Below, piece by piece: positions 48,439-64,000 of a DNA stretch of 64,000 bases (positions within the stretch are counted from its first letter, which is position 1; each line of letters starts with the position of its first letter). The stretch comes from Planctomycetota bacterium. Lineage in GTDB: Bacteria; Planctomycetota; UBA8108; SXIK01. Below the pieces are notes generated by a model. The model saw nothing but the letters and a program-made list of their open reading frames with translations, did not search any database and was not told the origin of the DNA. The stretch is taken from assembly GCA_965223845.1 (NCBI GenBank), contig CBDCXR010000004.1, positions 7,648,001 through 7,712,000 of the forward strand, written 5' to 3'. Made by a program: the position numbers and the translations under genes.

Positions 48439-50414
48439 GACGCGTCTCCGGCGGAGCGATGCGAGTCCTCGGGCGGGGCGGGATTCTCGGAACCTTCCGG
48501 AAAAGCGGGGAGAAGTCGCGGGCCGTTCACGCCTGCGATCGGGAGGCGGAGCGTGAACGTCGATCCGCTCCCGCGCGTGCTCTCGAGCGTGAGTTCGCCG
48601 CCCATCTGCTCGCTGAGCCGGCGCGCGATCGCGAGCCCGAGGCCCGTTCCCTGAACGGAGTAGTCGTCGAAGCTTGCGCGGACAAACTCGTCGAAGACGC
48701 GCTTTCGATCTTCGGGCGCGATGCCGACGCCGTTGTCTGCGATCGCGACCTCGATCCAAGGCGTCGCGCGCGAGACTCGAAGGCGAATCTGCGGCCGTTC
48801 CTCGCCTCGATACTTGAGTGCGTTCTCGAGGAGATTGAGAACGATTCGTTCGAGCGCGCGAGCATCGGCGCGTGCCACGCAGTCTCCTCTTTCGCGTTCG
48901 AATTGGAACTCGACGCCCGACTCTCGCGCGCGAAATGCGAACATCTCTGCGGTCTTTTCGAGTGCGGCGCCCACGTCGACACGTACGAGTTGAACGGTCG
49001 TGATCCCGCGCTCGAGTCGGGAGAACTCGAGCACATTCTCGATCGTGCGGCTGAGCCGGAGGCTCTCTCCGTGCAGGAGCGATGCGTAGCGCTGCGCCGT
49101 CGCGGCGTCCAGTTCGTCCGTCGAGAGCATCTCCGAGAAGAGACGGATCGACGTGGCGGGAGTCTTGAGCTCATGGGAGACGTTCGCGAGAAGCTGCGAC
49201 TTCAGGCGAGCGAGTCGACGTTCCCGCCGAACGAACGCGACGAGCGCGCCGGCGCCGGCGAGCGTTGTCACGACGAGGAGGCCGATGAGTAGGCGGAGAA
49301 TGCGGCGGCGTTCGTGGAGCCCAGCGACGCGTAGAGATCGGCGCGGGTCCGAGACAAGCAGCCGTCCGACCGTCGCCGCACCGAAGACAACCGGGCGCCG
49401 GACGCTTGCGTCGACGTGAGTCGTTTCCGACTCGCTGGGTTCGAGGCGAGCTTCGTACCCGCGCGCGAGCGCGAGCGGCGGAGGTTCGAACGGAACTCGG
49501 ACGAGCGCACGGTGTTGACCGCCGTCCGGCGAGGTCACCGGGAAAGCCGCGAGAATGCCGTCGCCGTCGAGTACCGCTTCTTCGTCGACGAGAGCGTGCG
49601 GGCAACGTCGCGCGGCGCCAGCGAGCTCAGCGCGAGCGGCGAGCAGGTCGGGCAGCGTCGAAGCCGGGAGGCGACGCGCGGCGAGCGAAAGAAGGCGGTC
49701 GGAGGCGAGGCCGTGCTCGCGGGCGAGGATCTCGCCGAGATCCGCGGTCGACATCGGAAGCGCCGGTCGGCTCGAGTCGGACTCCGGCCCGAGATCGAGG
49801 AGGGCGAACGCCGCGAGGAAGACGAGAGGTTTGCCGTCTTCAGACCAAGTCGCTTGCGTCCCGTTCAGAATCGACGTGAGGATCCCGCGTGCGAGACGGT
49901 CGCGACCGGTCGCGCGCGCGGCGCGCGCCGACGCGAGCCGAAGTCGATCGCCGAGCTCGCGGTCGCGAATGCGAGCTAGGTAGAACGCGTAGGCATCGAG
50001 AGCGCGCGCAGGCGCGTCGAGCACGTGCTCGAAGTACTCGCCGCCGCGAACGCAGAGTCGATAGAGGTACTCGTCGTCCCCGGCTCGTTGGAGCCGGGCT
50101 TCGGGCCGGAGATCGAACGTGAGAGTGCGGGCGGCGGCGTCGCGAACGAATCCGACGAGAGGTGCTACGCGCACCGGCTCACCCTCCGCTACCGAGCGCT
50201 GCGTCCGCGCTCGAATGCGCTCGAACTCTCGATCCGCTGCCGCGAGCGCGGAGCTGACGCGAGTCGCGAGCGCGTCGGCCTCGATCTCCAGCTCCGCGTC
50301 GATGGCTGAAACCGCCGCGGCGAAATCCTGGTCCGCGACGCGTAGAGCGAAGTACGCGAGACCGAGAGAGGGCGCGAGGAGTAGGAGCGCGAACGCAGCG
50401 ACGGATCGGATCAA
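48435..50414 (-). CDS. Membrane sensor histidine kinase
   Basis: Two TMs; VSHELKTP, NLLENALKY, DNGVGI, GTGLGL; TTG start overlaps the upstream TGA. Confidence 0.92.
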   Translation of the reverse strand: MIRSVAAFALLLLAPSLGLAYFALRVADQDFAAAVSAIDAELEIEADALATRVSSALAAADREFERIRARTQRSVAEGEPVRVAPLVGFVRDAAARTLTFDLRPEARLQRAGDDEYLYRLCVRGGEYFEHVLDAPARALDAYAFYLARIRDRELGDRLRLASARAARATGRDRLARGILTSILNGTQATWSEDGKPLVFLAAFALLDLGPESDSSRPALPMSTADLGEILAREHGLASDRLLSLAARRLPASTLPDLLAARAELAGAARRCPHALVDEEAVLDGDGILAAFPVTSPDGGQHRALVRVPFEPPPLALARGYEARLEPSESETTHVDASVRRPVVFGAATVGRLLVSDPRRSLRVAGLHERRRILRLLIGLLVVTTLAGAGALVAFVRRERRLARLKSQLLANVSHELKTPATSIRLFSEMLSTDELDAATAQRYASLLHGESLRLSRTIENVLEFSRLERGITTVQLVRVDVGAALEKTAEMFAFRARESGVEFQFERERGDCVARADARALERIVLNLLENALKYRGEERPQIRLRVSRATPWIEVAIADNGVGIAPEDRKRVFDEFVRASFDDYSVQGTGLGLAIARRLSEQMGGELTLESTRGSGSTFTLRLPIAGVNGPRLLPAFPEGSENPAPPEDSHRSAGDAS

Positions 50415-53158
50415 GGCTCGCCCTCGGCTCGTTCCGTGCGCAAGGACTCGACGAGCGCCTTCCATTCCCGTCGCTCTTCGAGTGTTTTTCGAATGCTGCG
50501 GAGAGCGTTCAGTGCGCGTGCGCGGAGGTCGACATCGGGGTCGTCGAGAAGCACGGTGAGAGGCTCGATTCCTTCCGGTGCCGCGAAGCGCTCGAGGCCG
50601 GCGATCCCGGCGAGTCGATCGACGCGTTTCTCACTGCGCGCCAGCTCGACGAAGATCGGGGCGACGTCGCTTCGGGTGAGCTTCTCGAGCTCCGCGAGCG
50701 GCTCTCCATGGACCCACTCGCTCGGGTCTGCAAGTCCGCGCCGGAGGAGGCGAAGGACGGTCTCCGTGTCCTTCTCATCGGCGAAGGGATAGTGCCGGTA
50801 CGCACCGACGCGGACATTGGTTTTGTCGCTCGTCAGCGCGGCTTCGAGGAGGCGAGCGCGAACCTCCGGTTCACGCTTATGAATCCAGCGCCAGAGATCG
50901 CGCGAGTAGTCGAGCCGTCCACCGACTCGACGAGTTCGACCGTCTGTCCGTCTGCGTTCGACCATGAGAAGACGCGAGGCGAGTGGATCGTCGCTCACGA
51001 ACATCTCCGCCCAGTCGAACCATTCGAAGCTACCGGTCGGATCGACCGAAACGGCTCGATCACGGATGTCCACGTCCATTTCTGCTGACTGGGCGATCGA
51101 CTGAGCGAAATCGGTGAGCTCGGCGCGCTCGAAGCTTCTCTGCGTGAGCGACCGCAGTGCTTCGGCTCGAGCGGCGGGCGTGCGCAGTGAACTGCAACGG
51201 GCGAGAAGTTCATCTCGGTGAGAGTCGAAGTCCTGACTGGGGATTCCCCTCAAGTAGTAGCGATGGACTGCGTCGAGGCCCGGAGTGTCGAGCTCCTTGA
51301 GAATCTCACCGTAGAGGCCGCGCGGGAGCGGCTTAGAGGGGCGTCGCAGCCTACCGGCCCGGTCTTGCGGCCCGATCACCTGGTCGAGGTGGACCTTGAG
51401 AAGATGGACGAGTCGCGGCGCGACGAGACCGGGCTGCCGGTCGTAGTGGTCCGCGAGGAAGGTGAGCGCTCGTTCCCGAAACGGTGCATCGGCCGATGCC
51501 GACGCGACCGAGGCGAGACGTTCGAGAAACGACCCGTGAAGGTTCTCGGTTTTCCAGAGAAGGTGGAGCACGGTGCGAACGGCGTTTTCGTCTCCGCTCG
51601 CGAGAACGGGAGTGAGAGCGGTGACGAGCTCGGTCGGAACCACCTCGGGTTGGAACGAGGATCCGAGCACATTGTTACGCGACTGTAAGGCTTTCGCGAG
51701 ACTCGGATGCTCCGTCCGATAGTTCATGAGAAATTCGCCGAAGGCGGAGGCGAAACGCGCGTCCACGATGGCGGCTGCGCCGAGCAGCTCATGCCCGTAG
51801 CGAAACTTCGGCACTGCTCGTTGCTTCTGGTCGAAAAACCCGCACTGGGCGAGCACCGATGACCAAGCCGCAGGTGCATCCGCAACCTTGCCGGTCGCAA
51901 CGTAGGTGTCGTGGAAGTAGTTGGCGACCGCGTTGCCCGCGCCACGTTCGGCCCGGTCGGCGAGGATTTCGAACGCCCCGCCCCGCTCGAGATTCGCGAG
52001 GAGCGTCTTCACGCTGCCATAGCTGAGTCGACTCGTACCCGAAGTTTTGGATCGGGCGATCGTTTCGTCGAGAATCGCCGTCCACTGAGCGACCCCTAGC
52101 GCCTCCGGCGCCACCGCCTCGAGAACCGATATCAGCGTTCGGGAGTTCCGGCAGTCGTCGGCGAGGATGCGTTCCGCGACGATCCCTGCGAGCTCCGGAT
52201 GCCGGCGGAGAAACGCGCGCAGTCGTTCAAACATGGAAAAGGATTCGAGACTCGGCAGGATCGCTCGGAAATCATCGACGGCATCGATTTGGAGTGCGAC
52301 GAGACTGCGCCACTCGGCGGTGCCCGGCGTGATGGGGAGGGCGTCGACGCGGCTACCGATCTCTTTGCGCTCCTCGGGCGAGAACTTCGCGGCTCGATCG
52401 AGATAACCGGTCAAGTGGTCGAAGAGGAGGCGATCGGTCGCTGCGACCTGCGCCGCCGACGGGATCGGATCTTTCTCTCCAAGAAGCACGGACCAATTCT
52501 CATGCCGTCCGAGTTCGATGAGAACGAGCGCGAGGTGCCAGCGCTGAGTGCGGTCGCGAGACGTCGACAGAACGCGAGAGAGTACCGGGACTCCGATCGC
52601 GCCGAGCGCCTTGAGCTGGCGCCGCGCGCGCCGGCCCTCGTCGGTCTCCGGGCTGACGAGATCCATGGCGAGATCGAAGACGCGAGCCTGAATGAGCTCG
52701 CTTCGTCCGAGCTCCCCCAGCCAGTCGAACTCCGGGTTCTCGGTCGTCCCGCGCTCGAGCTCGCGGAGGAAAACACGCGCCTCCTGGATGACGCGGCGTT
52801 CTTCCGGGTGCGCGGCCACGACGCGCTCCAGGATCTTTCGCGCCTCCTCGATCTCGCCGGTCTTCCGGCGGCAGCGCGCGAGATAGAGAAGCGCACGCGC
52901 CCGGATCGACTCAGTCGCCGCCTCGGACTCGGCCAAGACGGTGTAGATCTTCACCGCGCGATCGAGATCGCCCGATGCGACTTCGAGAAGCTCGGCCTCG
53001 AGCAGCCGATCCTCGAGATCGTCGCCGGCCTTTGCGGCCGAAGACAACCGGCTCCCCGTGGGCGAAGTGGCGGCCGTATCCGACTGGCTGAGTAGAATCG
53101 ACGGTGAGCTACCGACGATCGCCAGCGCGATCCCGATCGTGAGCACGTTTCGGCGCAT
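50411..53158 (-). CDS. Exported TPR plus HEAT-repeat protein
   Basis: Signal peptide; N-terminal TPR pair; C-terminal HEAT repeats (LLDDPDVDLRARALNAL). Confidence 0.78.
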   Translation of the reverse strand: MRRNVLTIGIALAIVGSSPSILLSQSDTAATSPTGSRLSSAAKAGDDLEDRLLEAELLEVASGDLDRAVKIYTVLAESEAATESIRARALLYLARCRRKTGEIEEARKILERVVAAHPEERRVIQEARVFLRELERGTTENPEFDWLGELGRSELIQARVFDLAMDLVSPETDEGRRARRQLKALGAIGVPVLSRVLSTSRDRTQRWHLALVLIELGRHENWSVLLGEKDPIPSAAQVAATDRLLFDHLTGYLDRAAKFSPEERKEIGSRVDALPITPGTAEWRSLVALQIDAVDDFRAILPSLESFSMFERLRAFLRRHPELAGIVAERILADDCRNSRTLISVLEAVAPEALGVAQWTAILDETIARSKTSGTSRLSYGSVKTLLANLERGGAFEILADRAERGAGNAVANYFHDTYVATGKVADAPAAWSSVLAQCGFFDQKQRAVPKFRYGHELLGAAAIVDARFASAFGEFLMNYRTEHPSLAKALQSRNNVLGSSFQPEVVPTELVTALTPVLASGDENAVRTVLHLLWKTENLHGSFLERLASVASASADAPFRERALTFLADHYDRQPGLVAPRLVHLLKVHLDQVIGPQDRAGRLRRPSKPLPRGLYGEILKELDTPGLDAVHRYYLRGIPSQDFDSHRDELLARCSSLRTPAARAEALRSLTQRSFERAELTDFAQSIAQSAEMDVDIRDRAVSVDPTGSFEWFDWAEMFVSDDPLASRLLMVERRRTDGRTRRVGGRLDYSRDLWRWIHKREPEVRARLLEAALTSDKTNVRVGAYRHYPFADEKDTETVLRLLRRGLADPSEWVHGEPLAELEKLTRSDVAPIFVELARSEKRVDRLAGIAGLERFAAPEGIEPLTVLLDDPDVDLRARALNALRSIRKTLEERREWKALVESLRTERAEGEP

Positions 53159-53367: not shown

Positions 53368-54144
53368 TCAGACGCCGACGATGTTGTACCCGCAGTCGAC
53401 GTAGATCGTTTCGCCCGTGATCCCGCTCGAGAGCGGGCTGAGCAGGAACGCCGTCGCGTTCGCCACTTCGTCGACCTCGACGTTCCGCCGGAGGGGAGAG
53501 ACCGACGCGACGTGATCGAGGATATCGGTGAAGCCGGAGATCCCGCGTGCGGCGAGTGTGTTGATGGGGCCCGCGGAGATCGCATTCACGCGGATCTGCT
53601 TCTCACCGAGGTCGGCCGCGAGATAGCGAACAGACGCCTCGAGCGCGGCTTTCGCGACGCCCATGACGTTGTAATTTCGAACCGCTCGCGCGGCGCCCAG
53701 GTAGGTCATCGCGACGATGCTCCCGCCTTCCGACATGAGAGGAGCGGCCATGCGCGCAATGGCGGTGAGGGAATAGCTGCTCACGTCCTGGGCGAGGTGG
53801 TAGCCCTTGCGCGACGTGTTCACGAACGTCCCCTCGAGGTCGTTTCGGTCGGCGAACGCAACGGAGTGGACGACGAAGTCGAGTCGACCGAAGTCGGCAG
53901 CGAGCCGCTCGCCGAGTGCGGCGATGTCATCGTCATCGGTCACGTCGCAGGGATAGAGGGGCGTCGATCCGGGGAGCGTTTCGGCGAGACTTTCGACCTT
54001 CCCCTTCAGCTTATCGCCCAGGTAAGTGAGCGCGAGCTCGGCGCCGGCGTGCGCCGCCGCCTGCGTGATCGCCCACGCGATGCTGCGCTTGTTCGCGACT
54101 CCGAGGATGAGGCCCTTCTTCTCCGCCAGCATGTTCGTGGTCAT
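53368..54144 (-). CDS. fabI: Enoyl-ACP reductase FabI
   Basis: GVANKRSIAWAI, HSVAFA, YNVMGVAKAALE, VNAISAGPI.TLAA. Confidence 0.96.
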   Translation of the reverse strand: MTTNMLAEKKGLILGVANKRSIAWAITQAAAHAGAELALTYLGDKLKGKVESLAETLPGSTPLYPCDVTDDDDIAALGERLAADFGRLDFVVHSVAFADRNDLEGTFVNTSRKGYHLAQDVSSYSLTAIARMAAPLMSEGGSIVAMTYLGAARAVRNYNVMGVAKAALEASVRYLAADLGEKQIRVNAISAGPINTLAARGISGFTDILDHVASVSPLRRNVEVDEVANATAFLLSPLSSGITGETIYVDCGYNIVGV

Positions 54145-54331
54145 CCCGATTCGTCCTGCCGCTTCTCGCGCCTTCGCCAGTGCCGCGGAGCCGCGCTACG
54201 CCGTTCTCTCTCGCGTGCTCCGGAACGCGGGCGAATTGTACCCGAACAGCTGGGAGCGGTCGACGTCACCGAGCCGTCCGGCCCGGCGCGGTCGCCGTAC
54301 GGCGTGCGATCTCCGACGCCGGGGAATTCGC

Positions 54332-54360
54332 TTTACCGCGCTTGGGGCCCTCGTTATAAG
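54332..54360 (+). promoter_or_regulatory. Putative sigma70 promoter of the arg operon
   Basis: TTTACC-N17-TATAAG. Confidence 0.55.
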
Positions 54361-54498
54361 GGGCGGTTTCCCCCGAGGACGAGACGACTCGCGCCCACGC
54401 GGCCGATCGATCTCTCGAGGCGGGTGCGGCCACCCGCGGTTTCGAAGGTTTACCGTCCTCGGGCGCTCGCTCGGAATTCGGCGACGGAGCCGACCAAC

Positions 54499-54567
54499 AT
54501 GCATCCGACCGACCACTCGTTCCATCGTGGAAGACCCCGCCGGGGACGCGGCGGCCGCCGTCGCTAG
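54499..54567 (+). CDS. Putative Arg-rich leader peptide MHPTDHSFHRGRPRRGRGGRRR (22 aa)
   Basis: SD GGAG at 54486-54489, then ATG; 8 Arg in the last 13 codons; lies between the putative promoter and argB. Confidence 0.55.
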   Translation: MHPTDHSFHRGRPRRGRGGRRR

Positions 54568-54895
54568 GCCCCGGCTAACGACGTTTTCGAACGAGATGGT
54601 CCACTCGGACGCCGTCCGATTCTCCCCTGGCCGGCACTCTCGCTTTCTGACGGGCGAAGAAGGTCGCGGACCGGGAGGGAAGGACCAGCGAGGCGCAGCG
54701 GGTGATTCGCTGCGCGACCTCTCGCGACAAGCGAGAAGTAGAATCGCGGCCCGAGCCGCGCGACGTGACGTCCCCGTTCGTGGATCGTTCCGACCGCGAA
54801 GAGACGCACATCGGCGCCGGTGAGAGCCGCGACGCTCGAGGAAACGATCCGCCGATCGGTGACATCGGTGGGGCGGATCGCAAGCGAGGACGACG

Positions 54896-55891
54896 ATGAC
54901 CCCCGACGCTGATCTCAGTCTTCTCAAGCAGGCGCTTCCCTACATCAAGGAGTACCGCAACAAGACCTTCGTGATCAAATTCGGCGGCGAGGTCGTGTCC
55001 GATCCCGATCGACTCGACGCGCTCGCCGAGCAGATCGCGCTCCTCCACGAGCTCAACGTCCGTCTCGTGATCATTCATGGCGGCGGGCCTCAACTTTCGA
55101 ACTACGCCGAACGTCTCGGGATCGAGGCGAAGAAAGTAGGGGGGCGACGCGTCACCGACGACGGTCTTCTCGAGGTGGCGAAGATGGTCTTCGCCGGCGG
55201 GATCTCGACCGACATCCTCGCGGCGCTCCGGCGGCACGACACACCGGGGGTGGGCCTCTCGGGAGTCGACGGCGACCTCGTTCAGGCCGTGCGTCGACCT
55301 CCGCGACGAGTCTACGACGACACCGCGGGCGAGGAGCGCGAGGTCGACTTTCAGAACGTCGGCGACATCCAGTCCGTGCGTCCGGAAGTCCTGAGCGTTC
55401 TTCTCGAAAAGAGATTCGTCCCCGTCGTTGCCTCCCTCGGCTGCAGCGACGACGGGCGCGTGCTCAACATCAACGCGGACACGATCGCGGCGGAGATCGC
55501 TTCCGCCCTGGACGCCGAAAAACTCTTTCTCTTCTCGAACGTGAACGGAGTTCTCCGCGATGTTGCGGATCCGTCGAGTCGGCACTCGTATCTCCTCGTC
55601 GACACGGTTCGACGAATGCTCGAAACGCGCGAGATCTCCGGCGGGATGGGCCCGAAGCTCACTGCGGCGATCGCGGCCGTCGAGGGCGGAGTTCGCCGGG
55701 CGCACATCATCAACGGGCTCGTCGAGAACGCGCTTCTCCTCGAAGTGTTTACGGTCGAGGGCGCGGGAACCATGATCCTCGATGAGGAAGAGGCCGCGAT
55801 GTACGCGGCGCGCCGGAAGGGAGTTCTCAGCCGCGGGGAAGCCTCACGAGAAGAGGCGCCCCCGAAGGTCGCAAAAAAAGGCGAAGAGTAG
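54896..55891 (+). CDS. argB: N-acylglutamate kinase
   Basis: QALPYI, VIKFGG, HGGGPQ, RVTD, NINAD, GGMGPK, LLLEVFT.EG.GT. Confidence 0.95.
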   Translation: MTPDADLSLLKQALPYIKEYRNKTFVIKFGGEVVSDPDRLDALAEQIALLHELNVRLVIIHGGGPQLSNYAERLGIEAKKVGGRRVTDDGLLEVAKMVFAGGISTDILAALRRHDTPGVGLSGVDGDLVQAVRRPPRRVYDDTAGEEREVDFQNVGDIQSVRPEVLSVLLEKRFVPVVASLGCSDDGRVLNINADTIAAEIASALDAEKLFLFSNVNGVLRDVADPSSRHSYLLVDTVRRMLETREISGGMGPKLTAAIAAVEGGVRRAHIINGLVENALLLEVFTVEGAGTMILDEEEAAMYAARRKGVLSRGEASREEAPPKVAKKGEE

Positions 55892-55960
55892 AAGCAAAGG
55901 AAAACCTAGAGACCGGGAGACACCGAGTTCGGGTCCGGGATGACCTGGCGGGAGAGAACT

Positions 55961-57346
55961 ATGCGGAGTGATCGGTTCGGGGCGGAGCTGAACGAAGCGA
56001 TGGCGCGACTCAACGCGTCGATCGGATTCGACCATCGCCTCTACAACGAGGACATCGATGGTAGTCTCGCGTGGGCGGACGCCCTCCTCGATCGCGATCT
56101 GATCGACGGTGAGGAGCACCGCCGCATCTGCGACGGACTCGAGAAGGTCCGCGGCGAGATCGACGCGGGCAGCTTCGAGTTTTCGGTCGAGCACGAGGAC
56201 ATCCACATGAACGTGGAGTCCCGTTTGACGGCGCTCACCGGAGACGCGGGAGCAAAGCTCCACACCGGACGAAGCCGGAACGACCAAGTCGCGACGGATC
56301 TGAGGCTCTACTTGAAGCGTTCGGCGGTGACTGCGGCGCGCGCGCTCGCCGAGCTCGCCACGGAGCTCTCGGCGCTCGCGGAGCGGGAGATCGACGTCGT
56401 GATTCCGGCGTATACGCATCTTCAACGCGCTCAACCCGTCCTCTTTGCGCATCACGTTCTCGCGTACGCCGAGATGCTCATTCGCGATCGCGATCGCTTT
56501 CTCTGGGCGGCGAATCAAGCCGATTCCCTGCCTCTCGGGTCGGGAGCGTGCGCGGGGAATCAATTCGGCATCGACCGCGAGCTCCTCTCGGCCCGCCTCG
56601 GGTTTGCCCGGCTCACCCACAACTCCATGGACGCGGTGAGCGATCGCGATTTTGTCTGCGATTTTCTCCATGCGGCGTCGCTGCTCCTCGTCCATCTCTC
56701 GCGCTTCAGCGAGGACCTCATTCTCTGGTCGAGTGCGGAGTTCGGATTCGTCGTTCTCGACGACGCGGTGACGACCGGAAGCTCCATGCTGCCGCAGAAG
56801 AAGAATCCCGATGCGTGCGAGCTCGCCCGCGGAAAGTGCGGTCGCGTGTTCGGACATCTCGTTGGACTCCTGACGACGCTGAAGGGCTTGCCGCTCACGT
56901 ACAACAAGGACCTCCAGGAAGACAAAGAGGGAGTGTTCGACGCGATCGACACGATCGAGCTCCTTCTCCCCGTGTTTCGAGCGACGGTCGCGACGCTCGC
57001 GGTCCGCCGCGAGAACATCGCGGGGTCATTGAGTGGGGGGTTCCTCGATGCGATGGGGCTCGCCGACTACCTGACTCGGCGCGGCGTTCCGTTTCGCGAT
57101 GCCCACGGTGTCGTTGGGGCCGTCGTACGTCGAGCCGAAGCGGAAGGGAAGGAACTCTCCCAGCTCTCCCTCGAAGAGCTGAAGGAGATCCATCCCACCT
57201 TCGAGAGCGACGTCTTCGAGGCTCTCCGCCTCGAGAACCTCGTCGCAGACAAAGATGTCGTCGGGGGCACGGCCCCGGCGCGAGTGAGGCAGGAGATCGA
57301 GCGGGTGCGTTTGCTCGCCGGGGCGACCCCGCCGGACGAGGAGTGA
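55961..57346 (+). CDS. argH: Argininosuccinate lyase
   Basis: EDIHM, HTGRSRNDQ, YTHLQRAQP, TGSSMLPQKKNPD, YNKDLQEDK. Start may be 55940. Confidence 0.96.
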   Translation: MRSDRFGAELNEAMARLNASIGFDHRLYNEDIDGSLAWADALLDRDLIDGEEHRRICDGLEKVRGEIDAGSFEFSVEHEDIHMNVESRLTALTGDAGAKLHTGRSRNDQVATDLRLYLKRSAVTAARALAELATELSALAEREIDVVIPAYTHLQRAQPVLFAHHVLAYAEMLIRDRDRFLWAANQADSLPLGSGACAGNQFGIDRELLSARLGFARLTHNSMDAVSDRDFVCDFLHAASLLLVHLSRFSEDLILWSSAEFGFVVLDDAVTTGSSMLPQKKNPDACELARGKCGRVFGHLVGLLTTLKGLPLTYNKDLQEDKEGVFDAIDTIELLLPVFRATVATLAVRRENIAGSLSGGFLDAMGLADYLTRRGVPFRDAHGVVGAVVRRAEAEGKELSQLSLEELKEIHPTFESDVFEALRLENLVADKDVVGGTAPARVRQEIERVRLLAGATPPDEE

Positions 57347-57460
57347 CGGCCGTTCGGACGGCACGAACCGCGGCGAAGATCAACGAGTCCGCCGAAAGGC
57401 GGAGCGCAGGCGCGCACGGAGCACGGATTCGTGCGCGAAATGGAATCGTAGGAGCGAGAC

Positions 57461-58675
57461 GTGGCCGAGAAGAAGAAAGTCCTCCTGGCGTACTCGGGCG
57501 GACTCGATACGACGTACTGCATCATCTATCTGAAAGAGAAGGGCTACGACGTCCTGACGGTGACCGTCGACACGGGCGGCTTCACGGCGGAGGAGCTGCG
57601 CGGAATCGAAGAGCGCGCCGCCGCGCTCGGAGTCCTTAAGCACGAGACCATCGATGGGCGACAGCGCGTTTTCGACGACTACGTCAGCTACCTCATCAAA
57701 GGGAACGTGCTCCGCGGTTCCGTCTACCCGCTCGCTGTCGCGGCGGAGCGAGTCGTCCAGGCCGAGATCGTCGCCGAGATCGCTCGAGCTGAGGGCGCCG
57801 ATGCGATCGCGCACGGATCGACCGGAGCGGGAAACGATCAGGTCCGCTTCGACATCGCGTTTTCCGTGCTCGTGCCGAACCTTCCGGTCATCACTCCGGT
57901 GCGCGATGAGACGCTGAGTCGGGATGAGGAGTTCGACGCGCTCGAGCGCCACGGCATCGACATTCCGAAGACGCTGCGAACGTATTCGATCAACAGTGGT
58001 CTCTGGGGAGCTACGATCGGCGGAGGGGAGACGCATGATCCGTGGCAGGAGGTGCCGGACGCCGTCTTCGAGGAAGCGATCGACGCGCCTCGAGCAACCG
58101 CGACGGAGTACGTCGAGATCGAATTCGAGCACGGGGTGCCGGTCGGCCTGGACGGTCGTACGGTGCCGGCGGTCGACGTGATCGCTGCGCTCGGCGAACG
58201 ATGCCGGAGCCACCGCGCCGGGCTCGGAATCCACATCGGCGACACCGTTCTCGGCATCAAGGGACGCATCGCGTTCGAGGCCGGCGCGGCGCTCGTCCTG
58301 ATCACGGCGCACCGGGAGCTCGAGAAGATCACCACGACTGCATGGCAGCGCTTTTGGAAGGATCATTCGGCGGAGTTCTACGGGAAGATGCTTCACGAAG
58401 GGAACGCTTTCGATCCCGTTCTTCGCGATATCGAGGCGCTGATCGACAGCTCGCAGGAGCGGGTGAGCGGAACGGCGCGAATCCGGTTCGATGCCGGCCA
58501 GTTTCGTGTCGTGGGGGTGAAGAGCCCTCACGACATGATGCGGCAGGAGTCCGGAGTCTACGGCGAGAAGCCCACTCTGTGGACGGGCGCCGACGTGAGC
58601 GGCTTCAGTACCGTGACCGCGGTCTCTTCGCGGCTTCATCGCCAGGCGGGTGCGAGGGACGAAGGCGGCTCGTAA
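57461..58675 (+). CDS. argG: Argininosuccinate synthase
   Basis: LAYSGGLDT, HGSTGAGNDQVRF, YSIN.GLWG, GIKGR. Confidence 0.96.
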   Translation: MAEKKKVLLAYSGGLDTTYCIIYLKEKGYDVLTVTVDTGGFTAEELRGIEERAAALGVLKHETIDGRQRVFDDYVSYLIKGNVLRGSVYPLAVAAERVVQAEIVAEIARAEGADAIAHGSTGAGNDQVRFDIAFSVLVPNLPVITPVRDETLSRDEEFDALERHGIDIPKTLRTYSINSGLWGATIGGGETHDPWQEVPDAVFEEAIDAPRATATEYVEIEFEHGVPVGLDGRTVPAVDVIAALGERCRSHRAGLGIHIGDTVLGIKGRIAFEAGAALVLITAHRELEKITTTAWQRFWKDHSAEFYGKMLHEGNAFDPVLRDIEALIDSSQERVSGTARIRFDAGQFRVVGVKSPHDMMRQESGVYGEKPTLWTGADVSGFSTVTAVSSRLHRQAGARDEGGS

Positions 58676-59733
58676 TGGACCTACGCGTGCACAAGATCGC
58701 CTCGGTCGTTCACCGCCTCGGCTTCGAAAAGACCGTCGAAGTGACGGAATCGCTCGAGGTCGCAGCGGGGAATGCCGTCGTTGTCCGCGCGCTCCGTGAG
58801 AAGCGAGTGTACAGCGACCTCGAGCTCGACAGCGGACGCATGGCAAAGATCTACCGCGGCGACGTGTTCATCGGTGCACTCGGATGCCGGCGTGCTCTGC
58901 GAGGGTTTTGCGGCGATCTTCCCACGCGTCTCCGCGTCGGCGACACGCTTCAGCTCCTCAACCGCGGTGGCGTCGTCGGTCGAAGCGCGACCGAGCACAT
59001 GGACATCGGCTCCCCCGTGACCTGCGAGGTTCTGGGCATGCCGATTCGCGGCGGTCGCATCGCGAACGTCGCGGATTCTCGACTGCCGTCGACACCCGAA
59101 CGCCGTGACGTCGAGCTTCCGCCCGTCCTCGTCGTCACCGGGACGTGCATGGATTCGGGGAAGACACTTTTCTTGTCCGAGCTGATTCAGGAGCTGACGC
59201 GCGACGGTCTCGCGATCGCGGGCGGAAAGCTCACCGGAATCGCGTGCCAGCGAGATCTGCTCGCGATGGAAGACCACGGCGCGATGGCGACGGCGTCGTT
59301 TCTCGACGTCGGGCACACATCGACGGTGGATCTTTCGCCGGCGCGTCTCGTCGAGGCCGCGCGCGACATCGTGAGCTATCTCGCGAGCTTCGGCCCGGAT
59401 CTGATCGCCCTCGAGCTCGGGGACGGACTGCTCGGTGACTACGGCGGCCTCGAGCTCCTCCGGCACGAAGAGTTCCGCGATTGGGTCCGCATGCACGTTT
59501 TCTGCGCTTCGGATCCCGTCGGTGCGTGGGGCGGGAAGCGACTCCTCGCGGAGAGCGGAATCGAGATCGACCTCTTCTCCGGACCCTGTACCGACAACGA
59601 AGTGGGCAAGGAATCCCTCGAGCGGGAGTGGGGAATCCCCGCGATCAACGCCCACCGTCAGCCGGCGGAAGTCGCGCAGGTTGTTCGCCGCCATCTCGAA
59701 GCGGGCGGGAACGCGGATCCGGGCATCCAGTAA
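58675..59733 (+). CDS. DUF1611-like P-loop protein of unknown function inside the arg operon
   Basis: TAATG overlap with argG; ELDSGR, GALG.RRA, GTCMDSGKT, KLTG, DVGH.ST, ELGDG. Confidence 0.8.
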   Translation: MDLRVHKIASVVHRLGFEKTVEVTESLEVAAGNAVVVRALREKRVYSDLELDSGRMAKIYRGDVFIGALGCRRALRGFCGDLPTRLRVGDTLQLLNRGGVVGRSATEHMDIGSPVTCEVLGMPIRGGRIANVADSRLPSTPERRDVELPPVLVVTGTCMDSGKTLFLSELIQELTRDGLAIAGGKLTGIACQRDLLAMEDHGAMATASFLDVGHTSTVDLSPARLVEAARDIVSYLASFGPDLIALELGDGLLGDYGGLELLRHEEFRDWVRMHVFCASDPVGAWGGKRLLAESGIEIDLFSGPCTDNEVGKESLEREWGIPAINAHRQPAEVAQVVRRHLEAGGNADPGIQ

Positions 59734-59794
59734 GAGGCTTTCCACTAGCGCGTACGGTGCGACGGGACGAGCATTCACGAAGGACGAAGGCGAC

Positions 59795-60847
59795 ATGGCG
59801 AGCGAAGGCGGGGCGAGGAAATCGATCAAGGTCGGGGTTGCGGGCGCGTCCGGATACATCGGAGCGGAGCTCCTTCGCTATCTGGTGGGGCACCCGCAGG
59901 TGTCGATCGACTGGGCGACGGCCAACACGCACGCAGGGAAGTCCGTGGCCGACGTGCTGCCGAATCTTGTCGGGGTGCTCGATCTCGAACTCGAGACGCT
60001 CGAGGACGTCGAGTCTCGCGTGCCGGAGACGGATGTCGTGTTTACCGCGCTTCCGCACAATCACTCGCAGGATGTCATTCCACGGCTCGCGGCAGCGGCA
60101 CCGAATACGGTGTTCATCGATATGGGCGGAGACTTTCGCAGTCCCGACCCCGAGCGTTACCGATCGTTCTACGGTCGCGATCACGCGGCGCCCGATTGGC
60201 TCGAGCGTTTCGTCTACGGAGTGACCGAACATCGGCGCGACGCCCTCCGCCGGACGAAGCTCGTCGCGAATCCGGGCTGTTTTGCCACGGCGATGGGACT
60301 CGCGCTCGCGCCGCTCGCGCGGGGCGGGCGACTTCCCGCCGACGTTTACGTCGCTGCCATCACCGGGTCGTCCGGTGCGGGGAACAAGCCGCTCCAGACG
60401 ACGCATCACCCGGAGCGCGCCGCAAACGTCCGCGCGTACAAGCCACTCGTGCACCAGCATCTTCTGGAGGTCGAGTCGTTTCTCGCGACGTTCGGCGAGC
60501 GCGAGTTTCGTCTTCACTTCGTGCCGCAAGGCGGTCCCTACGTCCGCGGGATCTTCGCCACGATCTTCACTCCCGGACTGAATCGCGACGAGCTCGAAAG
60601 GATCTACTCCGACGCCTATGCCGACGAGTCGTTCGTCTCCGTGGTGAGCGGTTCCCCCGAGGTTCGGTGGATCCAGGGTTCGCCCCGAGCGTTTCTCGGC
60701 GTCGCCGGCGACGCCGGGCGCGGTGTAGTTTTCGCGGTACTCGACAACCTCGGAAAGGGGGCGGCCGGGCAGGCGATTCAGAACATGAATTGTATTTTCG
60801 GTTTGCCGGAGACCACGGGCTTGGTGGTTCCCGCGGGTTGGGTTTAG
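59795..60847 (+). CDS. argC: N-acyl-glutamyl-phosphate reductase
   Basis: GASGYIGAEL, ALPH, DFR, ANPGCF, GSSGAG, H.H, DNLGKGAAGQA.QN.N. Confidence 0.95.
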   Translation: MASEGGARKSIKVGVAGASGYIGAELLRYLVGHPQVSIDWATANTHAGKSVADVLPNLVGVLDLELETLEDVESRVPETDVVFTALPHNHSQDVIPRLAAAAPNTVFIDMGGDFRSPDPERYRSFYGRDHAAPDWLERFVYGVTEHRRDALRRTKLVANPGCFATAMGLALAPLARGGRLPADVYVAAITGSSGAGNKPLQTTHHPERAANVRAYKPLVHQHLLEVESFLATFGEREFRLHFVPQGGPYVRGIFATIFTPGLNRDELERIYSDAYADESFVSVVSGSPEVRWIQGSPRAFLGVAGDAGRGVVFAVLDNLGKGAAGQAIQNMNCIFGLPETTGLVVPAGWV

Positions 60848-60915
60848 GTGATGGGGCGGCGACGGGGGAGCGGAAGTTCGTCGGGAATGTGGAACGTGGA
60901 ACGGGTGTGAGCGAT

Positions 60916-62097
60916 ATGAACAGCTTTGAACAAGAAGATCAGTTTGTCCTTCCGACGTACAGCAAGCTTCCGATGGCTCTCGTCCGCGGCCGTGGATCGT
61001 GGGTCGAAGACCAGGCGGGCGAGCGCTACCTCGACCTCTACGGCGGTCATGCCGTCACGCTCCTCGGCCATTCGCACCCGAAGTGGGTTGCGGCGCTCAA
61101 GGAACAGCTCGACGCGCTCGACTTCTATTCGAACGTCAGCTACCACCCGCTTCGTGCGGATGCGGCGCGACGACTCGTCGAGCACAGCTATCCGTCGATG
61201 GCCTCGGCGTACTTCTGCAATTCCGGTGCGGAGGCCGTCGAGACAGCGCTCAAGATCGCGCGCGGAGCGACGGGGCGCGAACGGGTCATCGCTCTCGAGC
61301 GCGATTTTCACGGGCGCACCGCCGGTGCGCTCGGAGTAGCGGGGAACCCGAAGCTCCGCGATCAGTTTCCCGCGTCTCTCGGGTCGTTCACCGACTTCGT
61401 TCCGCTCGGCGACCTCGACGCCCTGCGCGCGATCGATCCAGCAGCCGTCGCGGCGCTCATCCTCGAGCCGATTCAGAGCCTCGCCGGGGTGTATCTCGCG
61501 CCGCCCGAGTATTACGTCGAGCTCCGCCGGTACTGTTCGGAACACGGCATACAGCTCATCTTCGACGAAGTGCAGACCGGGAGCGGCCGCACCGGCGAGT
61601 GGTACGTCGGGACGCACTGGGACGTCGAGCCGGATCTCGTGACGACCGCCAAAGGCGTTGGTGGAGGCTTTCCCGTCGGCGTGGTCCTCGTGAACCGATC
61701 GCTGACGGACGGCGTTTCCGTCGGCGATCACGGGAGCACGTTCGGCGGAGGTCCGCTGGCGGTCGCCGCGGTGAGCGCGACGTACCGAATCCTCGAAGAA
61801 GAGGGGCTCGTCTCGGCGGTCGCGAAGCGCGGAGCAGAGGTGCGTCGCCGGCTCGAAGCGCTCGTGGGAGGACCCGTCGTGCGCGAGGTTCGCGGGCTCG
61901 GCTACCTCCTCGGTGTCGAGTGCACGGTGCCGGCAGCGGACGTCCATCGCCATCTTCTCGCCGCGAAGATTCTCGTCGGAAAATCCGGCGATCCGAACAC
62001 GCTCCGTCTTCTCCCTCCGCTCACCGTGACCGACGAGGAGTGGGATCTCTTCTTCTCCGCCCTCGAGAGTTTCGAGCCGGCCGCCGCCACCGCATGA
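60916..62097 (+). CDS. argD: N-acylornithine aminotransferase (class III PLP)
   Basis: YLDLYGGHAV, NSGAEA, FHGRT, EPIQ, FDEVQTG.GRTG, AKG, HGSTFGG. Confidence 0.92.
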   Translation: MNSFEQEDQFVLPTYSKLPMALVRGRGSWVEDQAGERYLDLYGGHAVTLLGHSHPKWVAALKEQLDALDFYSNVSYHPLRADAARRLVEHSYPSMASAYFCNSGAEAVETALKIARGATGRERVIALERDFHGRTAGALGVAGNPKLRDQFPASLGSFTDFVPLGDLDALRAIDPAAVAALILEPIQSLAGVYLAPPEYYVELRRYCSEHGIQLIFDEVQTGSGRTGEWYVGTHWDVEPDLVTTAKGVGGGFPVGVVLVNRSLTDGVSVGDHGSTFGGGPLAVAAVSATYRILEEEGLVSAVAKRGAEVRRRLEALVGGPVVREVRGLGYLLGVECTVPAADVHRHLLAAKILVGKSGDPNTLRLLPPLTVTDEEWDLFFSALESFEPAAATA

Positions 62098-62180
62098 TCG
62101 GTTCGTGGCGCAGCGTTTCGTGGGCAGTTCCGCCTGCGCCGTCGTCGTAGTATACTCCGGGTTTTGGCCAGGGCCGTCTG

Positions 62181-63173
62181 ATGCGACATTTCTATAGTCT
62201 GAACGAGTTTAGCCCGGGCGACATCGACGAGCTCCTCGATCGAGCGGTCTACCACAAGGAGAACCGCTACGTCGACGTGCTGCGTCGGCGGCAGATCGCC
62301 CTCCTTTTCCTCGATCCGTCGCTTCGCACGCGCTGCTCCTTCGAGGTCGCGCTCCGCGAGCTCGGCGCCGGAGTGAGCAATCTCGAGAGTCAGTCGCTCT
62401 GGACGCTCGAGACCGAGTTCGGAAAGCGGATGGACGGCGATCGAACCGAACACGTCCGCGAGGCGATCGGCGTTCTCTCTCGCTATTTTGACGGACTCGG
62501 CCTCCGCTGCTTCGCGCGCGGGGAGAATCGCGACGACGATCTCGTCGACCGGATGTTCAGCTCGTTCATGGAGCACGCGAAGATTCCGGTCTTCAATATG
62601 GAGTCGGCCGTTTACCACCCGTGCCAGGCGATGGCGGATTTGCTCACGATCCGCGAGTTGCTCGACTCTCTGAACGGCCGAAAGATCAGCATCGTCTGGG
62701 CGACGCACCCGCGACCACTTCCGCACGCGGTGGCGAACTCGATCGTGCTCGCGACGGCGCTCACTGGAATGGACGTGACGCTCGCGCATCCGGAAGGCTT
62801 CGAGCTCCACGACGGGATCATGACTCTCGCGCGTAGTTTCGCGGAAAAATCGGGAGCCAACCTGCGCGTCACGCACGATCTGTCCGACGGTGTTCGCGAA
62901 ACGGAAGTCGTGTACGCGAAGGCGTGGGGCGGTCTCCTCCGCTACGACGACCCCGCCGCCGAGGCGGCGCTCCGGGAGAAGCATCGCGACTGGATCGTCG
63001 ACAAGCCGCTCCTCGACCTCACGCGACGCGCGTACTTCATGCACTGTCTCCCGGTGCGGCGGAACGTCGTCGTCTCGGACGAGGTGCTCGACTCGCAGCA
63101 GTCGGTCGTCCTTCGCCAGGCCGAAAACCGACTCCACGCCCAGAAAGCGATTCTCGAGTGGATGTTCTCTTGA
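62181..63173 (+). CDS. argF: N-acyl-ornithine carbamoyltransferase (ArgF', AOTCase/SOTCase group)
   Basis: SLRT, extended 80s loop W.LE....MDG...EH, HPCQ, Pro-rich HPRPLP.AV.NS, HCLPVRRN. Confidence 0.92.
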   Translation: MRHFYSLNEFSPGDIDELLDRAVYHKENRYVDVLRRRQIALLFLDPSLRTRCSFEVALRELGAGVSNLESQSLWTLETEFGKRMDGDRTEHVREAIGVLSRYFDGLGLRCFARGENRDDDLVDRMFSSFMEHAKIPVFNMESAVYHPCQAMADLLTIRELLDSLNGRKISIVWATHPRPLPHAVANSIVLATALTGMDVTLAHPEGFELHDGIMTLARSFAEKSGANLRVTHDLSDGVRETEVVYAKAWGGLLRYDDPAAEAALREKHRDWIVDKPLLDLTRRAYFMHCLPVRRNVVVSDEVLDSQQSVVLRQAENRLHAQKAILEWMFS

Positions 63174-64000
63174 TCCGGCGGGCAGGAACGGCAGTCGCGA
63201 TCTGGACGGCACTTTGCGCGGCAGCGAGCGGCGCGCTGGTCGCCGCCGACCCGATCGTTCAGGACGACGATTTTCTCGGGAGCGCACCGTTCATTCGCGC
63301 GGTGCCGTCGGACGTCCTCTTTTACGGCGAGTTTCGCTGCCCACGGGGAGGCGCGTTCGCCGCCGGCGCGGCCGGTCTCAGAGACGCCCTCGCCGAACCG
63401 ACCTTCCTCTCTTCCTTCGCCGAGTATCTCGGCCCGCGCGTGCGCGAACGGAAAAAAGGCTCGGTCAAGGAGTCGCTCGATCACTGGGCGCGCCTTCTCG
63501 GTTCTTCGAGGTGGTGGCGGTTCGGCGCGGGCGAAGGCTTCCTCGCCGCGAGAATCGAGGACGGCCGGCGCGTCTGGCTCGCGGGCACGCGCGTCCCGGC
63601 GAGCGAATGCGACGCGCGATTCGCCGAGATCGAGCGGGTTCTCTACGGATTCGCGGCGATCCTCCCGAATCGAGAGCTCGAAGTGGGGCGGCACAAAGGC
63701 GCGAGCGTCATCCGGCTCTACCGCCTCTCCTATCCGCTCGACGAGCTGTGTGTGTCGGCGGAAGAGGGATGGATCCTGGCGTCGACGTCGCGTCAGTTCC
63801 TCCGCCAGGCGCATCTCAATCTGCGCGGCCGCACCCGTGACCGGGGACTCGAGCTCACCGCGCTCGACGACAAGGAACTCGCGTCAGTCGCGGAGACCTC
63901 GCGGTTTCTTGCTCGTCGCCGGTCGAGCTGGTCGAACGGATCGACCGACCGGGTGCATTCCGAACGATCGGACTCAGACGGTCCGCCGGCGGGGTTCTTC
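63170..64000 (+). CDS. Exported hypothetical protein (runs off window)
   Basis: Frame open to the window end; TTG start overlaps the argF' stop (alternative GTG 63158); signal-like AVAIWTALCAAASGALVAA-D. Confidence 0.65.
   Translation, partial: MIRRAGTAVAIWTALCAAASGALVAADPIVQDDDFLGSAPFIRAVPSDVLFYGEFRCPRGGAFAAGAAGLRDALAEPTFLSSFAEYLGPRVRERKKGSVKESLDHWARLLGSSRWWRFGAGEGFLAARIEDGRRVWLAGTRVPASECDARFAEIERVLYGFAAILPNRELEVGRHKGASVIRLYRLSYPLDELCVSAEEGWILASTSRQFLRQAHLNLRGRTRDRGLELTALDDKELASVAETSRFLARRRSSWSNGSTDRVHSERSDSDGPPAGFF

Follow-up and report, generated by a model that had tools for sequence, protein, structure and literature searches.

Here, we analyze the arginine biosynthesis operon in a window of 64,000 nucleotides (C4:7648001-7712000) of a 7.93-Mb Planctomycetota genome that is 91.7% complete, and in particular a gene of this operon, here called X, that belongs to no curated family. 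As in a preliminary description of this DNA, the genes lie in the order argB-argH-argG-X-argC-argD-argF' on the plus strand, from 54896 to 63173 (Table 1). All operon genes except X could be named, either from curated models whose cut-offs they exceed or from unambiguous Pfam domains. The stop codon of argG and the ATG of X overlap in a TAATG at 58672-58677, and this start codon is supported by the homologues of X, which begin with the same methionine. We suggest that X probably makes N-succinyl-L-glutamate, whichever acyl donor it uses. The location of X in an arg operon is real, and acylation at the first step best accounts for the data because X is an arg-operon gene, ArgJ and a recognizable ArgA were not found in the genome, the linkage to arg genes recurs in other genomes, and X and ArgJ are nearly mutually exclusive. 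The preliminary description had proposed that X, as a DUF1611-like protein, replaces the enzyme of the first step; the acylating role stands as the best reading of the data, while the DUF1611 label does not.

None of the known enzymes for the first step was recognized in this genome. ArgJ had no match in the whole 91.7%-complete genome. The genome search for a two-domain ArgA also returned none, with TIGR01890 matching only the kinase part of ArgB, and ArgB itself (331 residues) consists of the amino-acid-kinase domain alone, without a fused acetyltransferase domain. A search of the genome with PF04768 gave no match, and neither did its controls. Among the nine GNATs (PF00583) of the genome, none came near a curated ArgA cut-off (best 34.7 bits versus 154). 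These nine genes and the ten matches to the M20 family (PF01546) all lie outside the window, which, as first described, contains no GNAT, ArgJ, or ArgE gene. X itself has no ArgJ (PF01960) or GNAT domain in the Pfam and NCBIfam scans.

Table 1. Genes of the arg operon and parts of X (window coordinates).
Feature	Coordinates	Strand	Assignment and remarks
argB	54896-55891	+	N-acylglutamate kinase; PF00696 8.2e-50; TIGR00761 215 bits vs cut-off 151
argH	55940-57346	+	Argininosuccinate lyase; TIGR00838 579.5 bits
argG	57461-58675	+	Argininosuccinate synthase; TIGR00032 306.6 bits; stop overlaps X start
X	58675-59733	+	352 residues; no curated family; candidate N-succinyl-L-glutamate synthase
X, N-terminal all-beta domain	58675-59118	+	Residues 1-148; invariant E50, R72, P83; GALGxRRALxG, LLNxGGVxG
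X, C-terminal P-loop domain	59119-59733	+	BioD / CTP synthase / DUF1611 fold group
X, Walker-A-like loop GTCMDSGKT	59140-59166	+	Residues 156-164; K163, T164
X, KLTG	59227-59238	+	Residues 185-188; K185 aligned with invariant second lysine of BioD
X, ELGDG	59413-59427	+	Residues 247-251; E247 aligned with invariant Glu of BioD VEGxGG
argC	59795-60847	+	TIGR01850 336.3 bits
argD	60916-62097	+	Class-III aminotransferase; PF00202 7.4e-97
argF'	62181-63173	+	N-acylornithine carbamoyltransferase; NF003384 378 bits

The linkage of X to arg genes recurs in 159 of 160 related loci, which we inspected in two sets: the best 80 loci from species genomes, and a second 80 seeded with more distant members of the X family. 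In the first set, X adjoins argG and/or argC in every locus, usually in the order argG-X-argC-argD-argF'-argB, and the loci come from Planctomycetota, Blastocatellia/Pyrinomonadaceae, Terriglobia, Wallbacteria, and metagenome-assembled genomes (MAGs) labelled Clostridia. In the second set, arg genes lie next to X in 79 loci, 41 of which have all six arg genes; the exception without arg genes is a contig of 6.5 kb (L090). These loci belong to Gemmatimonadota, Alpha- and Gammaproteobacteria including Steroidobacteraceae, Holophagaceae, Bdellovibrionales, Peregrinibacteria, Chloroflexia, and Phycisphaerae; one of them (L160) is from Geothrix rubra, which can be cultured. The inspected intergenic gaps of the X loci contained no GNAT gene. 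Small open reading frames (ORFs) between argC and argD in Blastocatellia loci were considered as hidden GNATs and rejected, as they encode tRNA_bind proteins or have no match; tRNA_bind (PF01588) ORFs lie at L022:12138-12572 and L037:12246-12641. Micavibrio-type and alphaproteobacterial clusters hold a gene for a pyridoxal phosphate (PLP) enzyme of Cys/Met metabolism between argF' and argG (L093:15408-16712, L094:5826-7133, L095:14070-15392).

Next to this linkage stands a near-exclusive distribution of X and ArgJ. In 201 sampled Planctomycetota genomes, the X profile matched at E≤1e-10 in 68, and ArgJ was present in 76. A gap in the E-values (2.5e-85, then 1.8e-52) sets off 63 of the 68 as genomes with a strong X, while in the other five the best match is a weak paralogue. 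ArgJ was found in one of the 63 strong-X genomes versus 75 of the 138 others, and in five of all 68 X-matching genomes; related genomes are not independent, and these counts are a pattern rather than a statistic. The one strong-X genome of the sample that also has ArgJ (G104; 12.3 Mb, 87% complete, 3% contaminated) either results from mixed binning or truly carries both genes.

The hydrolase that would remove the acyl group later in the pathway helps to place X. Thirty-four arg clusters, 32 from the second set and two from the first (80 loci each), contain a deacylase gene close to argB or argH. In 33 of these 34 clusters it encodes an M20 peptidase; in the remaining one, from Peribacteria (L089:4410-5282), a desuccinylase-like gene of the AstE/AspA family (succinylglutamate desuccinylase / aspartoacylase) occupies the position between argB and argH where other clusters hold the M20 gene, which fits a succinyl-type acyl group. 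In the clusters with a deacylase, genes can be assigned to all steps other than the first, and X alone is left without an assignment, which argues that X acts at step 1 and not in deacylation. We consider these clusters the strongest argument for X at step 1.

They also weigh against the idea that X serves the other open step, either by deacylating N-acylcitrulline or by returning the acyl group to glutamate in the manner of ArgJ, possibly via an acyl phosphate. Acyl recycling from acyl-citrulline, which the preliminary description had offered as a second option, is weakened by the 34 operons with their own M20 or AstE-like deacylase, and it would leave step 1 without a gene. Moreover, no amide hydrolase appears by title among the top 50 fold matches of X; the metabolic enzymes among them, i.e., BioD, CTP synthase, and formyl-tetrahydrofolate (THF) synthetase, are ligases. 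Consistent with such a role are the near-exclusivity with ArgJ, as expected of an ArgJ substitute, and the lack of a recognizable ArgE both in this genome and, according to the available parts of the GapMind 2026 study (PLoS Genet, 12 Nov 2026, PMC13759103; bioRxiv 10.1101/2024.10.14.618325), in Steroidobacter. On balance, we regard a role of X at this other step as unlikely.

In the genome analyzed here, ArgE was not recognizable: its M20 proteins score ∼80 bits versus a cut-off of 298 and resemble glutamate carboxypeptidase or PepT. The genome holds ten M20 genes and one AstE/AspA gene, all away from the operon, and the operon-type M20 protein of locus L019 has no close homologue in it (35 bits). 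One of its own M20 genes (L002) was considered as a general partner deacylase of X and rejected, as it is present in just seven of 201 genomes. The AstE/AspA family occurs in 43 of the 63 strong-X genomes versus 47 of the 138 others, a difference that serves as a lead only, with related genomes not independent and many of the matches weak.

The carbamoyltransferase of the operon bears on the nature of the acyl group. According to the available parts of a review (PMC4581275), three residues separate acetylornithine from succinylornithine enzymes, the succinyl type having A/S/P/V/Q, P, and V/I/E at these positions. When aligned to the Xanthomonas campestris acetylornithine transcarbamylase (3kzc-type chains), ArgF' of the window carries T89, P181, and V297 in place of E92, N185, and K302. 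Among 60 ArgF' proteins from the first 80 loci, position 92 is Thr in 54, Ala in four, Ser in two, and never Glu; position 185 is Pro in all 60; and position 302 is Ile in 47, Val in 11, and Glu in one, with one unaligned. Because these residues are of the succinyl type, the X-linked pathway most likely uses succinylated, or similarly acylated, intermediates. Thr lies outside the residues of the quoted mutagenesis work, and succinyl is therefore the presumed rather than the established acyl group.

By sequence, X belongs to a large family. It has no family match in Pfam and NCBIfam, the sole row at E≤10 being MobB (E 0.023), and a phmmer search of PDB sequences returned nothing meaningful. Of 8000 candidates scored in a word-indexed search, 1499 were relatives at E≤0.001; among the best 120, only P0118 has a precomputed Pfam domain, and the names, where given, are "hypothetical protein". 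When 1.84 billion cluster representatives were searched with a profile, 1952 matched at E≤0.001, of which 1317 reached 1e-10 and 529 reached 1e-30. In species genomes, at least 553-588 stretches per scan encode a relative, from phyla that include Planctomycetota, Acidobacteriota, Gemmatimonadota, several Proteobacteria, Chloroflexota, and candidate phyla. An atlas look-up likewise led to clusters without a name, which belong to Pseudomonadota, Acidobacteriota, and Actinomycetota. Two fungal members with ∼30% identity to X (P0191, P0205), from Aspergillus avenaceus and A. melleus, are named hypothetical or "P-loop NTPase" at NCBI. Apparent fusions of X to ArgC (P0118, P0269) and to ArgB (P0162) were seen in protein records only and are possibly merged gene calls, as long open frames are common in this GC-rich DNA.

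All three motifs that had been noted in X, GTCMDSGKT, KLTG, and ELGDG, are present (Table 1). Over 251 family sequences, K163 is conserved in 250, T164 in 248 (with Ser in the other three), K185 in 251, D194 in 248, E247 in 249, and R72 in 249; this near-invariance argues that the motifs are not due to chance.

An AlphaFold model of X built with 38 homologues (predicted local distance difference test score [pLDDT] 93.7, predicted template modelling score [pTM] 0.91) has an all-beta N-terminal domain and a P-loop alpha/beta C-terminal domain. The top Foldseek matches, FtsY, HypB, and BioD, cover the C-terminal domain only (E ∼1e-6, template modelling [TM] score ∼0.35-0.39). In exhaustive VIA-align comparisons, the DUF1611 proteins 2g0t (Z 16.0; root mean square deviation 3.3, 180 residues aligned), 2obn (Z 15.0), and DgcN (7xrj, Z 14.2) rank with BioD (4a0f, Z 15.7; 1a82, Z 15.5) and CTP synthase (7dpt, Z 15.2), all these matches covering residues ∼142-347 only; formyl-THF synthetase is also among the fold matches (Z 13.4). 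Rows within 1 Z are ties, and the fold alone therefore offers no choice between DUF1611 and BioD. The N-terminal domain on its own (model pLDDT 92.5) reached at best a VIA Z of 3.2, with none of 48,161 chains at Z≥5 and no Foldseek match at E≤0.001. As modelled, this domain is without a clear solved relative, which does not by itself prove a new fold; it is presumed to be the substrate-binding part.

An alignment of BioD from 21 Planctomycetota genomes matched the X family in hhalign with a probability of 60% (E 8.6e-5, 163 columns) and paired GTCMxSGKT of X with GTDTxVGKT of BioD, K185 with the second Lys, and E247 with the Glu of VEGxGG. BioD is also the best PDB profile match of X (3fgn, E 0.028). 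The BioD models TIGR00347 and PF13500 do not match X, and distant members of the family score 16-22 bits versus a cut-off of 27. X further differs from BioD in its additional 148-residue N-terminal domain, its operon, and its substrate, and this genome has a BioD of its own.

The likeness to DUF1611 that had been assigned by eye holds for the fold of the C-terminal domain, to which BioD and CTP synthase are equally similar, and does not hold at the level of sequence. X has no PF07755 match at E≤10, and hhalign gave 2% without aligning the P-loop. DgcN and other DUF1611 proteins, like X, have two domains, ∼350 residues, and a C-terminal P-loop-like domain. However, true DUF1611 proteins carry the N-terminal domain PF17396, which is absent from X in the Pfam scan, and DUF1611 including DgcN has GK(M/R), ATGQTG, and EGQGS where X has GKT, GGKLTG, and ELGDG, so that neither the P-loop Thr nor the second Lys is present in DUF1611. 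Some distant members of the X family do have sub-threshold PF07755 scores (best 24.8 bits versus a cut-off of 25). A genome-wide PF07755 search found another locus and not X: the genome encodes a true DUF1611 (DgcN-like) protein with PF07755 and PF17396 at L008:1084-2127 (G000:C4:3962469-3963512), unlinked to arg genes and followed by a 444-residue ORF. An alignment built from this gene recovers 2obn, DgcN (7xrj), and 2g0t at E 1e-87 to 1e-60, which identifies DgcN as a DUF1611 protein. For X, the DUF1611 label is better replaced by "BioD-like P-loop domain plus an unmatched beta domain".

The same fold comparisons bring metal-inserting and assembly factors close to X, with Z-scores of 14.6 for UreG, 13.7 for HypB, and 14.6 and 14.0 for ApbC/Cfd1. 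X could accordingly be an accessory NTPase of the SIMIBI class that, like UreG and HypB, serves an arg enzyme, e.g., a metallo-deacylase, and weak paralogues of X directly after M20 hydrolase genes in two genomes would suit this idea. We regard it as very unlikely: a metal motif rich in Cys or His is absent from the invariant residues of X, BioD is the family matched by profile, and such a role would leave the exclusivity with ArgJ unexplained and step 1 without a gene. The weak paralogues (E 1e-47 to 1e-52 versus the family profile) occur in mixed contexts without arg genes; those at L172:4791-6970 (G094) and G079:C170:4061-6246 lie directly 3' of an M20 gene whose product is homologous to the M20 protein at L002 of this genome. 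Such a paralogue and its M20 neighbor may form an acylation/deacylation pair for another substrate.

Given the operon location, the missing ArgJ and ArgA, the succinyl-type signature of ArgF', the fold, and the residue conservation, we infer which reaction X catalyzes, from which acyl donor, and that it uses a nucleoside triphosphate (NTP). X would supply the first step that otherwise lacks an enzyme in a succinyl-type arginine pathway, and would place a succinyl (or similar dicarboxylic) group on the alpha-amino group of L-glutamate by chemistry like that of BioD, CTP synthase, and formyl-THF synthetase. Mg-NTP would bind to the P-loop domain, which would turn the free acid into an acyl phosphate; glutamate would be held by the all-beta N-terminal domain with its invariant Arg and Glu, and attack of the glutamate amine on the acyl phosphate would yield N-succinyl-L-glutamate, nucleoside diphosphate, and phosphate. 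ArgB, ArgC, ArgD, and ArgF' would then handle the product, and a separate hydrolase would later release citrulline and succinate. We tentatively propose this NTP-dependent succinate-glutamate ligase because K163, T164, K185, D194, and E247 are conserved and the P-loop, K185, and E247 align with BioD. In BioD, CTP synthase, and formyl-THF synthetase, such residues bind Mg-NTP and phosphorylate a carboxyl or carbonyl oxygen before the C-N bond is formed.

Several points weigh against this proposal. To our knowledge, N-succinylation of glutamate at the expense of ATP is without precedent, and the P-loop could also hold the ADP part of coenzyme A (CoA). The hhalign probability for BioD is just 60%, the PDB profile match has an E-value of 0.028, and X reaches no curated cut-off. 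The deacylase is unassigned in this genome and X could hold that role, or a stand-alone GNAT elsewhere among the nine in this 91.7%-complete genome could act as ArgA. Finally, DgcN, the nearest structural neighbor that acts on glutamate, is described as an acetyltransferase in the available parts of the sources; it acylates the glutamate amino group according to papers that cite it, as far as their text was available (including bioRxiv 10.1101/2024.10.14.618325).

The last point leads to the reading implied by GapMind 2026, in which X is a DgcN-like succinyl-CoA:L-glutamate N-succinyltransferase whose P-loop holds the nucleotide part of the acyl-CoA. The evidence from genomic context, phyletic distribution, and ArgF' applies to it equally, DUF1611 structures (2g0t, 2obn, 7xrj) are among the top folds, the PF07755 scores of some distant family members come close to the threshold, and the prediction is published. 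In contrast, the profile comparison with DUF1611 gave only 2%, X keeps a set of GKT, second Lys, and Glu that is absent from DUF1611 and DgcN, the N-terminal domains (all-beta in X versus PF17396) are unrelated, and the fold scores of BioD and CTP synthase tie with those of DUF1611. We therefore narrowly prefer the NTP-dependent ligase and consider the succinyl-CoA transferase possible, if somewhat unlikely. A further version, in which X is a CoA-independent acyl-phosphate enzyme for both open jobs, i.e., NTP-driven loading of succinate and phosphorolysis of N-succinylcitrulline, seems improbable to us. In genomes without a nameable deacylase, succinyl phosphate from N-succinylcitrulline would then be passed to a new glutamate; if true, this would be an ArgJ-like cycle on a P-loop fold with a beta domain unseen in solved structures.

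The idea of a new enzyme for this step, as put forward in the preliminary description, is already in print for a homologue. GapMind 2026 predicted the same role for a Steroidobacter protein, as a prediction only, based on linkage to the arg operon, mutual exclusion with ArgA, a Foldseek match to 7XRJ that is weak, and the residue at ArgF' position 92; the parts of the paper that were available give no mechanism beyond likeness to an acetyltransferase (PMC13759103; 10.1101/2024.10.14.618325). Like X, the protein of that study, ACG33_RS14135, represents a family of hypothetical proteins in an arg cluster with no ArgA, a succinyl-type ArgF', and remote fold likeness to 7XRJ, as far as the available text describes it. 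X likewise lies in an arg cluster of a genome in which the usual ArgA was not found, and its ArgF' has a residue other than Glu (Thr) at position 92. By contrast, X is from Planctomycetota, and position 92 of ArgF' in its branch is mostly Thr and not A/P/S/V. X is 38.5-39.9% identical over ∼330 residues (E ∼1e-53) to arg-cluster proteins of three Steroidobacteraceae MAGs (L141, L154, L156), and its likeness to Steroidobacter rests on these homologues and not on the named protein ACG33_RS14135 (A0A127FCT3). A scan seeded with a Steroidobacteraceae homologue found at least 80 close relatives in that family. The papers listed by a literature search on succinylglutamate synthase were of the GapMind lineage or on gut-microbiome reconstruction, with no biochemical study among them. 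X is a new member of a published, uncharacterized family. GNAT-type ArgA (of the E. coli, CG3035, and Bacteroides BT3761 types) and ArgJ have the same proposed step and unrelated folds. For Bacteroidetes, the available parts of an earlier study (PMC7311316) present the GNAT BT3761 as the presumed N-succinylglutamate synthase and the M20 protein BT3549 at the desuccinylase step.

The surroundings of the operon were also inspected. Upstream, on the minus strand, lie a gene for a FabI-like enoyl-acyl carrier protein reductase (53368-54144; PF13561 1e-90) and a gene for a 915-residue TPR/HEAT protein (50411-53158). The ∼750 bp 5' of argB (54144-54896) contain no supported gene; an ORF on the plus strand at 53512-54567 was rejected as a shadow ORF, its conservation being confined to the part antisense to the FabI-like gene. 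Past argF', from 63173 to 64000 and on to L169:1-1600, there are long overlapping ORFs with no Pfam match that are not conserved in related loci.

X-family genes are annotated as hypothetical because there is as yet no curated family model. If X activates succinate by NTP-driven ligation, this would be a new way of starting the arginine pathway, and the N-terminal domain would be a new substrate-binding module. If X makes N-succinylglutamate, by whichever route, a gap in arginine biosynthesis would be closed for very many species, and genome-based predictions of auxotrophy would change for the phyla that carry X.

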